A stretch of 64,000 bases of DNA, taken from a virus. Below are positions 311-20,845 of the stretch, one piece after another; position 1 is the first letter of the stretch, and every line of letters begins with the position of its first letter. Below the pieces are notes generated by a model, which was given only the letters and a program-made list of their open reading frames with translations, had not been told where the DNA came from and did no database searches. Location of the stretch: positions 9,849 to 73,848 of the IMG/VR virus record IMGVR_UViG_3300010883_000017; one strand, 5' to 3'. Made by a program: the position numbers and the translations under genes.

Positions 311-902
311 GCGCCCTAAGTCAGCGCGCCTGCATAGCTTGTTACAGGAGTTGGATATCAAATCCTGGGACGTGCTCTTAATAGGGGATGGTTCCGGCAG
401 CGGCTGGGATATCGGGGTTGGTTGGTCGTGCGTAGTGATAGATCGATATACGAAGTCTCGGAAGCTAATACACGGCGGCGGTAGTACAGGAACTGTAAAT
501 ATCGCGGAGCTGATGGCCTACGTGCACGCCATGCTTTGGTACTCTACCCACATAGGCCGTGAGCTGCGCAAGCAATACCCTCGCAAGATTCTCAATATTC
601 ATGTAATCACGGATTCCCGTGTTATTGTGACCCAGGGCAAGAAGGTTGCAGAACGGAACACAGAAGGGCTGGCTAACCGCGCGTTGTGGGCATCCATCAG
701 CGATATCGCCCGCCAGGGTTACACATTCCACTGGCATTGGATCGCGCGGCTCACTAATGAATTGAACTGGGCGGCCGATCAGATGGCAGGCTCAGCCAGA
801 AAAGCTGTAAAAAATTGCATGCTTACTGAGGACGTGCCGGATGAGAACGGCAAGTATACGGGGGTGTCGATATACGACATCAACCCACTAATTAAAAAAT
901 GA
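231..902 (+). CDS. ribonuclease HI-like protein
   Basis: Acidic catalytic set in LIGDGS, NIAEL, ITDS and WAADQMA, plus HWHWI; the true start may be further downstream (~297). Confidence 0.75.
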   Translation: MPTRNFSRSTQNSSQKPRKVKRVKKSKRPKSARLHSLLQELDIKSWDVLLIGDGSGSGWDIGVGWSCVVIDRYTKSRKLIHGGGSTGTVNIAELMAYVHAMLWYSTHIGRELRKQYPRKILNIHVITDSRVIVTQGKKVAERNTEGLANRALWASISDIARQGYTFHWHWIARLTNELNWAADQMAGSARKAVKNCMLTEDVPDENGKYTGVSIYDINPLIKK

Positions 903-906
903 CCAA

Positions 907-1020
907 AGGTTAGCGAAGAATAGCAAAGTGAGGTTGCGGCTAGTTATGCGTGGGTGTGAAATTTCGTGCATTGTTTAGCAAGTGCCCCCGTTATGTAGAA
1001 ATATATACCGGGGGATTTTT
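907..1020 (+). ncRNA. pentamer-periodic guide-like RNA unit U1 (15 pentamers + GAAA hairpin 985-1014)
   Basis: aggtt agcga agaat agcaa agtga ggttg cggct agtta tgcgt gggtg tgaaa tttcg tgcat tgttt agcaa; G at position 2 in 14/15; hairpin followed by ATTTTTAATCCAAG. Confidence 0.8.
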
Positions 1021-2960: not shown

Positions 2961-2997
2961 TTACGTGGCAAACTGGGTTCAAATAGGGAATGTAAAT

Positions 2998-4041
2998 ATG
3001 AAAAGCAGGAAGAAAAAAGTTAAGCAAAATACAAAGCGAAACGCGCCGAAAACATCAGTTTTGCGCCGCAAGAATACACGTTTAATGAGCAGGACTTCCG
3101 GAGGACGGCAGTCAGTTGTCGAAGCGCGTCTTGATAAAAAGGCCGATACAATTTTGGCCAAAGCAAAAATCATCAAGATAGCTGCGCAACCAACAAAGGT
3201 GTACCGCACTGTGAAAATTGACGATCTCCAGATCGACAACTCTTATCAGCGTCCGCTGAAAGAAGGTCATATTGCTGACATCATGATGTACTTCAATTGG
3301 GAGGGCTTCGGCACACCAGTTATAGGACGCCGTACTGGTGGCGGGCTATGGTTAATTGACGGGCAGCAGCGGATTACCGCAGCGCAGCGCTTGGGTGCTA
3401 CCAGCGTTGGCGCAGAGATCCGCGATTCTGTAGGGCCCAAATATGAAGCAAGTCTGTTTCATTTGTTGAACTCAACGAGCGTCGTCCCGACGAAGATGCA
3501 GATCTTCCGCGCGGCATTGCGCGCGGGTAATAAGAACGCCGTTGCTATCAATAAAGCAGTTAAAGAGGCGGGATTTCAAATCCATTTGAATGCGGTCAAT
3601 TATAGCGGCAGCGAGTGGCCGTATATTCGAGCACTCAGTCGTTTAGAAAAGCTGTTTAAGTACGGCGGCGTACAATTTCTTACGGAGGTGCTCTCGATAA
3701 TTAGTGAGACGTGGCCGGAAGAAGATGACGCAGTTCGCGAGGACGTTATCGGTGGAATGCACCGGTTTATTCGTTTTACTCGGTACAGTGATCCGCGCCC
3801 CAAGGGCTGGTTGCACGAGCTCATGCCCACAAGGGGGATGACGCGCCGCGATCGTATCGTAGAGGCGATTACGCAGAAGGGTCTGACTGCTGCAGGCTTA
3901 CATAACAAAGCTGCGAACAGCAAGGAATCGGCGTCTGGCTACAGCCGCGCCGAAGCTGTGCAGCGTATCTTGGACGAGACGTGCAGGTTTAATAGCCGCC
4001 GTAGAACGCCTAAAAGTACCGCTGCCGACGACATGGTTTAA
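2998..4041 (+). CDS. ParB/Srx-like N-terminal domain protein (DUF6551-like)
   Basis: LQIDNSYQRPL and LIDGQQR motifs; basic N-terminus. Confidence 0.7.
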   Translation: MKSRKKKVKQNTKRNAPKTSVLRRKNTRLMSRTSGGRQSVVEARLDKKADTILAKAKIIKIAAQPTKVYRTVKIDDLQIDNSYQRPLKEGHIADIMMYFNWEGFGTPVIGRRTGGGLWLIDGQQRITAAQRLGATSVGAEIRDSVGPKYEASLFHLLNSTSVVPTKMQIFRAALRAGNKNAVAINKAVKEAGFQIHLNAVNYSGSEWPYIRALSRLEKLFKYGGVQFLTEVLSIISETWPEEDDAVREDVIGGMHRFIRFTRYSDPRPKGWLHELMPTRGMTRRDRIVEAITQKGLTAAGLHNKAANSKESASGYSRAEAVQRILDETCRFNSRRRTPKSTAADDMV

Positions 4042-4096
4042 TACATGCGTATAAGCCCCCACACACACACTTTGCGTGTGTGCGGGGGTTGTTTAC

Positions 4097-4171
4097 TGCT
4101 CTGTGCTGCTGCGCGATACAAAGCGGAGCTGGGTCAAGCGGAGAAATGCCCGGGCCAGCATAGCAGAGTTT
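4097..4171 (+). ncRNA. pentamer-periodic guide-like RNA unit U10, directly upstream of the Cas7-like gene
   Basis: tgctc tgtgc tgctg cgcga tacaa agcgg agctg ggtca agcgg agaaa tgccc gggcc agcat agcag agttt; G at position 2 in 14/15; preceded by a CCCCC..CGGGGG hairpin (4056-4088). Confidence 0.82.
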
Positions 4172-4203
4172 TTGTTTTTGAAATTAAATGGAGGAATTTG
4201 AGT

Positions 4204-4998
4204 ATGCCAACCACAAAAAAGGCCCCTAAAAAGGCCACTAAAAAGAGAGGCGTTAAAGGAAATATGTCTGCGATGTTAGCAGAGATGCCAGACGACGCGC
4301 TTGCTACCATAGAAAAAGAGGGGGGAGACCTTCTCGACCTGGAGCTTATTGAGTTTCACTGGTTGGAGTGTGAAATCATCGGATCAAGTCCTTTGGTTAC
4401 TAATCGGTTCTCTGATGAGTCTTTGGATGCGATCGAGGGTAATCAGACCCAAGGAGCAACTGGTAAGAAGCTTAAGAAGCCCCCGCGACAACCTGAGAAG
4501 GAGTTTATGCAGGCTGCGCATATATGTAAGGGGAAAGCAGATCCTGCGCACCTTGAGAAGAACATCTATGGATTTCCCGCTGTCGCTTTGAAAAAGGCCA
4601 TGGCTAACGGGAACTACAGATACGGAGGCGCGAAGGATAAGGTGTCGCAGATGGGCGCATTTCATGTGCACGGCCCCTGGCACGGGCTGATCGAGGTGCA
4701 GGGGCTTGATGACAAGCCGTGTATCCCCTCGATGGGACGTGATATGGTCCAGCTTCCTAAGGGGCAGATTGCGTCTATCGCGTATAGACCATACTACTTC
4801 CCGTGGAAGATGAGCGTATTTATCCGGTATTGTCCGACCTTGATGTCCAAGGACGAGCTGATTCACGCCCTGTATATCGCAGGCAATTGCATCGGCATTG
4901 GTTCTTGGCGCACGGAAAAGAGCGGGGACAAGGGCTCGTTCGACGTCGGTGATATCAAGTACCACGGAAAAAACTTCCAAGCACCTCTGTGCTCGTAA
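4204..4998 (+). CDS. stand-alone Cas7/RAMP-like RNA-binding protein (Vipr-like candidate effector)
   Basis: GGAGG RBS; EIIGSSPLV strand, YGFPAVALKKA helix, RPYYFPW, and Gly-rich C-terminal loop AGNCIGIGSWRTEKSGDKGSFDV typical of Cas7-group RAMPs. Confidence 0.75.
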   Translation: MPTTKKAPKKATKKRGVKGNMSAMLAEMPDDALATIEKEGGDLLDLELIEFHWLECEIIGSSPLVTNRFSDESLDAIEGNQTQGATGKKLKKPPRQPEKEFMQAAHICKGKADPAHLEKNIYGFPAVALKKAMANGNYRYGGAKDKVSQMGAFHVHGPWHGLIEVQGLDDKPCIPSMGRDMVQLPKGQIASIAYRPYYFPWKMSVFIRYCPTLMSKDELIHALYIAGNCIGIGSWRTEKSGDKGSFDVGDIKYHGKNFQAPLCS

Positions 4999-5981: not shown

Positions 5982-6224
5982 ATGGCAGTACAGGAGACCT
6001 TTAGTCTTACAGACATCTTTGATGAGGCGCAGCTCACCAGATTAATCACTCTTTGGAAGAAACCAGGCACCACCACCGAAGATATATGCACTAAAATAAT
6101 TGAGCCCAATATGGGTCAGATTAATGAAAAACTGAGCATACTTACAGATGGTAGGATGGCTGACAATTACCCACAGTACATTGCGTACTGTTGTGAATTT
6201 GCATTAAGGAAAACAGATAATTGA
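5982..6224 (+). CDS. hypothetical protein
   Basis: AGGAG RBS, operonic spacing. Confidence 0.6.
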   Translation: MAVQETFSLTDIFDEAQLTRLITLWKKPGTTTEDICTKIIEPNMGQINEKLSILTDGRMADNYPQYIAYCCEFALRKTDN

Positions 6225-6237
6225 AGGAGGTAGCTAT

Positions 6238-6834
6238 ATGGCGACCACGGAAACGGCACAAACCCCGGCGCTAGCCACGCCAGTTGAAGTTCGATTTAGA
6301 GCTGCAACAGGTTCGCGCTTTAATAAAGCAGATGCTGAACGAATTGGGCCCGAACTACTGCGGCTGAAGAAGCACCACGGAGTTCTTACCAAGGATCTAC
6401 TTGTACAAAAGGCGCAGAGCGCCCGCTCGATCTTGCATGCTGATTTTAATTGGGATGACGCAACAGCTGCGCATGCCCACCGATTGGAGCAAGCACGTTA
6501 CATACTGCGGTCCATCATGATTGTGTGGGATGAGAGCACACCTGATGGCGGTGTCGAGCAGGTGTCTACGCGCTTGTTCCACAGTGTCCGCGTGAACAGC
6601 GATGATGAGGATGCCCCAACAAACCGCGGTACCCGCAGTCAACGCGTACACGTCACGTTTCGAGATGTGGTTGAGAACCCGGAATACGCTCAACAGGTCA
6701 TCGATTCTATGGAACGAGCAGTAGTGCGGTTGGATGCACGATTTCGGTTTTATTTGGATAAAGTTCCAATGTTTGCCGAAAGGTACCAGGGACTTTTTGA
6801 CGAGATTACCGCCTTGGAAGATAACATAGACTAG
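6238..6834 (+). CDS. hypothetical protein, candidate accessory of the Cas7-like gene
   Basis: AGGAGG RBS; LHADFNWDDATAAHAHRLEQARYILRSI motif. Confidence 0.7.
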   Translation: MATTETAQTPALATPVEVRFRAATGSRFNKADAERIGPELLRLKKHHGVLTKDLLVQKAQSARSILHADFNWDDATAAHAHRLEQARYILRSIMIVWDESTPDGGVEQVSTRLFHSVRVNSDDEDAPTNRGTRSQRVHVTFRDVVENPEYAQQVIDSMERAVVRLDARFRFYLDKVPMFAERYQGLFDEITALEDNID

Positions 6835-19363: not shown

Positions 19364-20845
19364 ATGACGAAAGCTTTAGTTATTGGTGACATCATGTTGG
19401 ATGCCACAATCGAGTGTGAGGTGTCGCGGGTTTCTCCTGAGGCGCCTGTTGTTATTGGTAGGGAGCGCAACCGAAAAGCGCAGTTGGGCGGGGCGGCTAA
19501 TGTTGCTGCTAACTTAAAAGCTTTGGGTGTTGATGACGTGTATTTGTACGGCGTCACCGGGGATGAGGACGACGCGGCGCATGAGGTCGAAGAGTTGTGT
19601 AAAGATCTTGGGATCTTTCCCCGCTTTGAGTACAGGACAGCGCAGCGCACCACGGTTAAAACCCGGTATGTGGCAGAGGGTCAGCTGATCTTTCGTCACG
19701 ACGCCGAGCGTCATTCCATTTCTAGCAACTACAAACAACACAGCACAGCCAAGATCGATGTGACTGAGTATGACGTAATCGTATTTGTGGATTACGACAA
19801 AGGGGTGGTCGGCGATTACGACACCTTCAAACTTATTGCTCAGGCTACGGCTGCTCAGATTCCTGTCGTTGTTGACTGCAAGCCCTGTAATCTTCCGTTC
19901 TTTACGGGCGCTACGTTTATTACGCCAAATGAAGCGGAGCTTGCGGAGATGTGCTTGCTGTATCTTCCGGCGGTTGAGCGTTCGCTTGAACAGGATACGC
20001 ATGAGCTGGCAGCTGGATTCGGGATTAAATGGGTGGTTTGTACGCGAGGCGGCGCGGGACTTGATGTCTACTTTGTCGCGCGGGATTATATTCGCAACAG
20101 CATAGAACCGCCGACGAGATTTTTGCCGAAGCAAACTCGGCGTGTTTACGATGTGACCGGAGCTGGTGATGTAGTTACAGCTGCTTTGGGTAGTGTTTTA
20201 GCACGCGAGCGGGCCTGGTCGAAGCTACCACTGGCATCCCAGCCAGCCGTCCACGACTCGATGTTTGAGTTTGCAAATACTGCGGCAGGGCTTGCTGTGG
20301 AGCAGCCGGGCACTACGGTGGTTGATCTTGATGCAGTTATCACTGCGCAGACAGAGGATCGCTTAAGCAGTAAGATCCTCCTAGAGGGCGCCGAGACTGC
20401 GGTGGAGGCTCTTCAAGCGGTTGGTAGATGCGTGGTATTTACGAACGGCTGTTTTGATCTCTTGCACCCTGGTCATGTGCACTTGCTACATGCGGCGAAG
20501 AGCGAGGGAGACGCGCTCGTTGTTGCTGTAAACAGTGACGAGTCCGTGCGTGCCTTAAAAGGAGATAAGCGCCCGGTTCTTCCTCTGCATTTAAGGATGG
20601 CCGCATTGGCTTCGTTGGATGTGGTGGATTACGTTGTTCCCTTTGACGAGGAAACACCGGAAGGCCTAATCCGTAAGCTGAAGCCAGATGTGCTTGTAAA
20701 AGGAAAGCACACGACGGATTGTCCACATCAGGATGCTCCTGTGCCAGGCGCAGATTTCATGGCGGCACGGGGGGCCCGGGTCGTGTTTGTTGACACGATA
20801 CCAGGCTACAGTACGACGGCTGTTATTGCCGGCGGCACTAGCTAG
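19364..20845 (+). CDS. hldE: bifunctional ADP-heptose synthase (kinase + adenylyltransferase)
   Basis: VSRVSPEAPV, GGAANVA, DVTGAGD, FTNGCFDLLHPGH, NSDESV..LKG..RP. Confidence 0.92.
   Translation: MTKALVIGDIMLDATIECEVSRVSPEAPVVIGRERNRKAQLGGAANVAANLKALGVDDVYLYGVTGDEDDAAHEVEELCKDLGIFPRFEYRTAQRTTVKTRYVAEGQLIFRHDAERHSISSNYKQHSTAKIDVTEYDVIVFVDYDKGVVGDYDTFKLIAQATAAQIPVVVDCKPCNLPFFTGATFITPNEAELAEMCLLYLPAVERSLEQDTHELAAGFGIKWVVCTRGGAGLDVYFVARDYIRNSIEPPTRFLPKQTRRVYDVTGAGDVVTAALGSVLARERAWSKLPLASQPAVHDSMFEFANTAAGLAVEQPGTTVVDLDAVITAQTEDRLSSKILLEGAETAVEALQAVGRCVVFTNGCFDLLHPGHVHLLHAAKSEGDALVVAVNSDESVRALKGDKRPVLPLHLRMAALASLDVVDYVVPFDEETPEGLIRKLKPDVLVKGKHTTDCPHQDAPVPGADFMAARGARVVFVDTIPGYSTTAVIAGGTS

Follow-up and report, generated by a model that had tools for sequence, protein, structure and literature searches.

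The stretch at 907-981 on the + strand of the window (the whole 64,000-nucleotide length of viral DNA that was analysed) is a tract of 15 tandem pentamers, which we call U1. We consider it probable that U1 is a VIPR guide RNA (vrRNA) of a marine phage, that it reads box II of a tyrosine recombinase of the Planctomycetota type, and that it silences the integrase of a rival element. This reading starts from the anatomy of the locus, the homology of its RAMP protein to Vipr and the match of the U1 code to a natural gene, each of which is directly observed. The VIPR system itself is already known, and has been in print since 2026. What is new is the instance, that is, a marine phage that probably infects Planctomycetota, with an AG-y scaffold, a plain hairpin tail, an embedded tRNA and a guide for tyrosine recombinase box II.

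In the paper that describes it, VIPR is composed of the minimal RAMP protein Vipr together with vrRNAs in which a series of GGY/NN pentamers is followed by a structured 3' tail. Target recognition is by the NN pairs, which read double-stranded DNA with a 1-nt skip that falls mostly at the codon wobble position (10.64898/2026.04.26.720920). Other clades are given there with NNNGG, YNNNG or NNNNG repeats (10.64898/2026.04.26.720920, Methods). According to two papers, the Type II VIPR of Escherichia phage SUSP1 contains Vipr, vap1 and vrRNA1-4, and its complex represses transcription from either strand. Its vrRNA4 lies on the active-site codons of the serine recombinase of an F5 satellite, whereby the satellite is immobilised, and perturbations of the scaffold, GGY to AGY among them, are stated to have abolished silencing (10.64898/2026.04.26.720920, 10.64898/2026.10.15.759431). 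The SUSP1 reference locus that we used for comparison is L036.

The guide tract and its sister units

The RNA features of the locus are as follows.

902-906, + strand: candidate extra 5' pentamer acCAA, immediately 3' of the upstream gene's stop codon, with an off-consensus scaffold
907-981, + strand: U1 guide tract (vrRNA repeat region), 15 pentamers with x-G-y scaffold and variable NN
985-1014, + strand: U1 3' tail hairpin, 13 bp with GAAA loop, common to the array units
1015-1028, + strand: U-run and junction motif, ATTTTT followed by AATCCAAG; consensus TTTTTGATCYAAG
1965-2960, + strand: main vrRNA array, seven more units of 109-203 nt each
2757-2830, + strand: tRNA-Glu(CUC), inside the vrRNA array
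4054-4171, + strand: hairpin and pentamer tract in the vipr leader, one further unit, with 15 pentamers at 4097-4171

A vrRNA has at least four tandem 5-nt units in which a conserved scaffold (GGY or a related consensus) alternates with hypervariable NN, and U1 has 15 of these. The scaffold has G at position 2 in 14/15 pentamers, A at position 1 in 7/15 and a pyrimidine at position 3 in 10/15, and the NN string is TT GA AT AA GA TG CT TA GT TG AA CG AT TT AA. Six 75-base segments with at least 14/15 in-phase G are found on the + strand and none on the - strand, compared with a mean of 0.03 for the same count in 100 shuffles; the 5-base rhythm of U1 is far above chance expectation. A phase bias like that of U1 is also present in further units of the locus. 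The scaffold is of the weaker kind, like the YNNNG and NNNNG consensus in the VIPR paper, and the NNNGG, YNNNG and NNNNG types described there share with U1 a pentamer period with just one or two fixed G positions.

On its 5' side U1 begins right after a stop codon, and the GATCYAAG junction found before the other units is absent. A search for a promoter-like site for U1 found none. The NN of the acCAA pentamer (AA, with target reading TT) agrees with TTA, the Leu codon next after ...ISN in L023, the matching integrase gene described below; it is possible, though uncertain, that this pentamer is part of the guide. The gene that ends right at U1 (231-902) has by eye the look of an RNase H-type protein (DG..G, E, D, H..D), and no Pfam match was found for it.

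A further mark of a vrRNA is a structured, invariable 3' tail, and U1 carries this in the form of the 13-bp hairpin with its GNRA loop and U-run. Across seven units 97.8% of the cells in the tail hairpin are paired, with compensatory changes in 10/13 pairs. None of 500 shuffles reached this level of pairing, and slid registers collapse. The U-run and junction motif recurs after each unit, and that at 1015-1028 is a terminator-like mark of the unit boundary. In two marine DNA runs from different studies the U1 tract is identical except for one tail base; at position 1021 two marine DNA runs have G in place of A, and with this G the junction after U1 takes its consensus GATC form, TTTTTGATCC.

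The array units follow a single plan, in which the junction GATCYAAG is succeeded by 12-24 pentamers, the hairpin and the U-run, seven times over at 1965-2960. The tRNA-Glu(CUC) gene is flanked by a U-run and GATCYAAG in the same way as the guide units, which suggests transcription or processing in common with the guides. It was the sole match in an Rfam search of the locus. In a variant contig from one marine run the flanks of the tRNA-Glu are replaced. RNA-library contigs from two seawater studies cover 3761-4358, at vipr and its leader tract; U1 lies outside these contigs, which cannot show small RNAs. A further stretch with in-phase G in 19/28 positions at period 5 lies outside the window, some 3.4 kb before its first base (G000 6396-6499). 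It seemingly falls within a small Cys-rich ORF, and could be due to chance or could be a solo guide.

Several of the sister units can also be decoded. Antisense NN decoding of units 2639-2718 and 4097-4171 gives motif IV of C5 cytosine methyltransferases, as ..GGPPCQAF and ..GGFPCQPFS, and the decoded peptides match PF00145 with E 0.0027 and E 0.00036, respectively. In unit 2639-2718 the sequence GGPPCQAF is spelled even by whole triplets. Unit 2072-2191, with 24 pentamers, decodes to AVTA(N/K)PPFS.(D/E)KW.., which is like the NPPF of type I HsdM-like N6-methyltransferases, and the peptide matches PF02384 weakly (E 0.18).

The Vipr protein and its neighbours

Three protein-coding genes near the guide units are considered here.

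2965-4041, + strand: DUF6551 (ParB/GmrSD_N-like) gene, PF20188 with E 1.2e-10, between the array and vipr
4204-4998, + strand: vipr, encoding a stand-alone protein of the RAMP/Cas7-like kind, 264 aa long and Lys-rich at the N-terminus
6238-6834, + strand: candidate vipr-accessory (vap) gene of 198 aa, with no Pfam family

A vrRNA locus should contain a vipr gene, coding for a minimal RAMP protein with a G-loop, and in the window this is the gene at 4204-4998. An AlphaFold (AF2) model of its product has a pLDDT of 74. Searching with this model in Foldseek gave 84 PDB matches at E<=1e-3, the best being 6s6b_I (E 1.2e-6), and all the matches listed are type III or type VII CRISPR effector complexes or Cas7-11, with chains of type III-B Cmr, type III-A Csm and the type VII effector complex at the top. 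When a profile of the family of the window protein was aligned to SUSP1 Vipr using hhalign, the two matched with a probability of 95.9% (E 6.3e-9) in an alignment that spans the strand and G-loop region. Both proteins contain the motifs YRP..F..W and AGN..G(I/V)G.WR. The product matches phrog_4652 and no Pfam family, and it has only 14 relatives among 5.8 billion proteins.

One distant relative is encoded on the viral contig L002, where an uninterrupted GG-Y-NN tract of ~570 nt lies at 6214-6783, just after its vipr. This tract slips in phase by one base per 60-100 nt and has no hairpins between units, so that it looks like the 'staggered array' architecture of the VIPR paper. The Vipr homology, together with the L002 tract, identifies U1 as a vrRNA and the locus as a VIPR system whose scaffold is A-rich. 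The original prediction had taken U1 for a guide, and the presence of a VIPR system with its Vipr protein bears this out. Before the protein was recognised, the occurrence of NAG at period 5 had prompted us to consider a TRAP-like or other protein-sponge RNA; this was dropped given the Cas7-like fold and the VIPR papers.

Homologs of the candidate vap gene lie directly 3' of vipr in two distantly related viral loci, L001 (6785-7009) and L002 (5840-5983), with tblastn E values of 6e-12 and 1e-5, and in the window the gene is 1.2 kb from vipr. No homolog of the DUF6551 gene was found in L001 or L002.

The Vipr of the window shares the RAMP fold with the Cas7 backbones of Class 1 CRISPR systems (types I, III and VII), and in VIPR, as in Class 1 CRISPR, a protein filament interrupts the pairing of guide and target at a fixed period. 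The period is 5 in VIPR, with two bases read and one target base skipped, whereas in Class 1 CRISPR it is 6, with five read. In further contrast to Class 1 CRISPR the guides of the window are hard-coded, and no CRISPR array, cas genes or adaptation module were found in the 73.8-kb contig of which the window is part.

The code of U1 and the integrase family that it matches

The series of NN pairs given for 907-981 by the original prediction agrees with the reverse complement of the observed NN string. It had been decoded as the tyrosine recombinase box II peptide FHTYRHSFISN. Each NN permits up to three readings (two residues, or stop), and this peptide is therefore one choice among many. If U1 is instead read as whole triplets, the result is L-K-M-R-F-H-T-stop-S-Q-S-L-I-S-N, which is ruled out by its internal stop. 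The stop shows that the third base is not read, in agreement with the published 1-nt skip rule. Decoding of U1 in the sense orientation gave no known motif, and at most 7/15 against the integrase family. A Pfam scan of the bare 17-residue decoded peptide found no match. We took this to reflect the low power of a scan with 17 residues and not as counter-evidence, and the assignment of the motif accordingly rests on the natural gene and its family.

We searched for that gene in several collections. No matches to exact U1 units 3-15, 7-15 or 4-12 were found in viral contigs, and none to a relaxed family-consensus pattern. Among 185,579 species genomes, units 6-14 had three chance-like matches; all three fell outside open frames and extended to only 19-23/30. 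In the JGI metagenomes the 9-unit core (units 5-13) is present in 28 loci, and after extension to 15 units two of these reach 27/30. The first is L023, matched at 739-782(-) in 27/30 read bases (90%), in frame and with a 1-nt skip, on ...RFHTYRHSFISNL... The skipped bases are those at codon position 3, and in the frame of L023 the site reads ...YKLRFHTYRHSFISNL... Twelve consecutive units are perfect and the three misses are each of a single base, one of which (AGA vs CG-) still codes for Arg. The second locus, L009, runs antisense to an apparent exon of a plant tRNase Z; stop codons interrupt its matching frame, and we rejected it as due to chance. Since L009 also reaches 27/30, such a score by itself carries no significance in a database this large. 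A vrRNA target should match at least 80% of the NN with a 1-nt skip and with the skips at codon position 3; L023 has all of these properties, and L009 equals its score by chance. No perfect (30/30) target of U1 was found in the viral contigs, the 185,579 species genomes or the JGI metagenomes. Thus the gapped pattern put forward in the original prediction led to one in-frame locus among the 28 in metagenomes that encodes a tyrosine recombinase, while the exact 13-unit pattern had no match in viral contigs.

The ORF of L023 comprises 248 aa and reads ...YKLRFHTYRHSFISNLACAG...GHTT...RYRHL. It is a tyrosine recombinase, matching PF00589 with 65.7 bits (cut-off 27.1) and E 5.8e-18. The in-frame match and the family of this protein support the decoding of U1 as tyrosine recombinase box II. 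Counting from the triplets, position 3 of the guide is the same as the wobble base of L023 in only 5/15 units. This fits a skipped base, and the third base is without code. No tRNA adjoins the integrase in L023, L034 or L035, a tblastn search of plasmids with the target integrase gave no match, and the ESM Atlas returned generic integrase clusters only.

The L023 protein has 473 homologs, and in the 120 listed both PF00589 and F-H-x-Y-R-H-S-F are present in every one (120/120). Those that are named come from Planctomycetales, Planctomycetaceae, Gemmataceae, Isosphaeraceae and Gemmata. The box II consensus of the family is W-F-K-[IV]-G-F-H-T-Y-R-H-S-F-A-S-N-L, and its segments F-K-I, F-H-T-Y-R-H-S-F and S-N-L, in this order, are compatible with the U1 code, at 13-14/15 positions. 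The best fit, at 14/15, is P0108 (..FKIGFHTYRHSFISNL..), which has PF00589 with 64.9 bits together with the SAM-like N-domain PF02899. Guides made by shuffling the units of U1 score 6-9/15 against the family, and the other array units likewise 6-9. Alignment of 17 members reveals invariant columns at R83/R84, K108, H192, R195, H218 and Y227, and the catalytic order R, K, H-x-x-R, H, Y is kept in all of these. U1 covers H192 to R195 and their neighbours, i.e. the H-x-x-R-H part. The family was found using a seed derived from U1, so the match in the core is not independent evidence. Independent support comes only from the six flanking units (F-K-I and S-N-L), which also fit the family consensus, and from T, Y and S-N-L, which are marks of this one family and not of integrases in general. 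Two distant members of the family in viral contigs match U1 at only 17/30, and among close members the comparison at the DNA level was made with L023 alone.

These data bear on three other accounts of U1. It could be a real vrRNA whose true target lies elsewhere, the likeness to integrase box II being a coincidence eased by the freedom of two-letter decoding. This would accord with the lack of a perfect match in the collections searched, the existence of a chance match at 27/30 in L009, the failure of the bare peptide to match Pfam and the use of a U1-derived seed to reach the family. We think it unlikely because T, Y, S-N-L and F-K-I, beyond H-x-x-R-H, all fit, giving 14/15 compared to 6-9 for shuffled guides, because the L023 match is in frame with its skips on wobble bases, and because recombinase active sites are a published class of VIPR target. 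Alternatively, U1 might be a broad guide at the level of the motif, kept by selection on box II of many tyrosine recombinases so that many elements are hit. The bases read are indeed those of invariant catalytic codons, arithmetic on the consensus indicates that members could reach 26-27/30 with AGR for Arg and TCN for Ser, and sister units decode to catalytic motifs of methyltransferases. Yet the 9-unit core is found in no integrase of the 185,579 species genomes or viral contigs, the relaxed family pattern is without a viral match, distant family members reach just 17/30, and T-Y and S-N-L characterise a single family and not integrases in general, all of which make such a guide very unlikely.

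The last of these accounts is that the tract does not function as RNA at all, being the 3' untranslated end or terminator of the 231-902 gene, or a decayed unit. The start of U1 immediately after a stop codon without the GATCYAAG junction, the failure to find a promoter-like site and the lack of an RNA contig over U1 would be in keeping with this. It is extremely unlikely in view of the in-phase G in 14/15 pentamers, the intact tail hairpin that covaries with those of other units, the finding of an identical tract, apart from one tail base, in a pair of marine DNA runs that stem from different studies, and the match of the code to a real gene family.

Proposed mechanism, host and relation to known systems

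In the mechanism that we propose, the guide RNA would be made from the + strand, and a filament of the Cas7-like Vipr would hold its x-G-y scaffold bases, leaving the NN pairs exposed. These pairs would bond with double-stranded DNA, one target base being skipped between pairs, corresponding to codon position 3. In this way the code of U1 would read the catalytic box II codons (H-x-x-R-H) of the tyrosine recombinase family typical of Planctomycetota. Inside the host, the Vipr-U1 complex would occupy the integrase gene of a rival mobile element, either a prophage or a satellite, and block transcription of that gene. We propose that excision or integration of the rival element during infection would thereby be prevented. 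Since the guide would read just the first two positions of each catalytic codon, we infer that the target has little opportunity for mutational escape. For DNA binding, repression and the biological role we reason by analogy with SUSP1. A change to AGY was among the scaffold perturbations stated to have abolished silencing in SUSP1, and U1 is mostly AG-y, so the scaffold rules may differ in this clade; if the system works, the Vipr of this clade must tolerate a different scaffold.

The viral contig has an estimated completeness of 35% by CheckV. All its long ORFs that lack a larger overlapping ORF lie on the + strand, and the phage DNA polymerase is only ~25-28% identical to the polymerases of cultured phages. 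The whole or part of the stretch is present in 15 public runs from 13 studies, all of them marine or seawater metagenomes, and half or more of its words occur in 6 of those 15. An HldE-like gene at 19364-20845 (bifunctional heptose kinase/adenylyltransferase, with PF00294 and PF01467) has few named cellular relatives, and these are mostly from Planctomycetota, at ~37-38% identity. The G+C content of L023 is 51%, equal to that of the window, and the two distant members of the integrase family are located on IMG/VR contigs, ~1.5-2 kb from the contig ends. Together these point, weakly, to a Planctomycetota host and an integrating element, and from such sequence comparisons Planctomycetota would be the likely hosts of the phage. 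No PF00589 gene was found in the phage contig.

The locus resembles that of SUSP1 in several respects. Both are borne by phages and have a stand-alone RAMP protein, both have pentamer-repeat guides with variable NN and a structured 3' tail, and in each one guide lies upstream of vipr with an array elsewhere. Each has a guide on wobble-aligned active-site codons of the recombinase of a rival element, in the window on the basis of the code match. There are also clear differences. The scaffold is x-G-y, mostly AG-y, in place of GGY, and the tail is a plain 13-bp GNRA hairpin with a U-run where SUSP1 has a pseudoknot. A tRNA gene lies inside the array of the window, unlike that of SUSP1. The target is a tyrosine recombinase box II, as opposed to the serine recombinase of an F5 satellite, the habitat is marine with Planctomycetota as the likely host, and Vipr is a protein of 264 aa with its Lys-rich N-terminus, compared with 195 aa in SUSP1. 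The solo (orphan) vrRNAs of F5 satellites and VIPR-null phages (10.64898/2026.10.15.759431) are like U1 in lying apart from a main array, from which U1 is separated by two genes (1085-1907). In contrast to these solo vrRNAs U1 is not an orphan, given that vipr is located 3.2 kb downstream in the same contig, and U1 is without a match to vipr or to the DNA of the phage itself, where the best match in the contig is 19/30.

It is possible, if doubtful, that U1 and its sisters, instead of each serving against a single rival element, constitute a hard-coded panel directed against whole enzyme families, comprising integrase box II, C5-methyltransferase motif IV and the NPPF of N6-methyltransferases. 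If this were true, a marine phage of Planctomycetota could silence any member of such a family, restriction-modification genes of the host included, and the targets could not escape by mutation.

The original prediction, working from the bare letters, had arrived at what amounts to the published VIPR code. Reading this code directly from sequence thus sufficed to predict a target family that was then found in nature, and a probable function can be assigned to a previously unannotated stretch of an uncultured marine phage. The way in which VIPR is understood to work is unchanged by U1. To our knowledge few phages of Planctomycetota have been described, and the target of this guide gives a prediction of the host that can be tested. 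The one tested case, a SUSP1 guide for a serine recombinase, would be extended by U1 to a tyrosine recombinase, to an AG-y scaffold and to another habitat and likely host.
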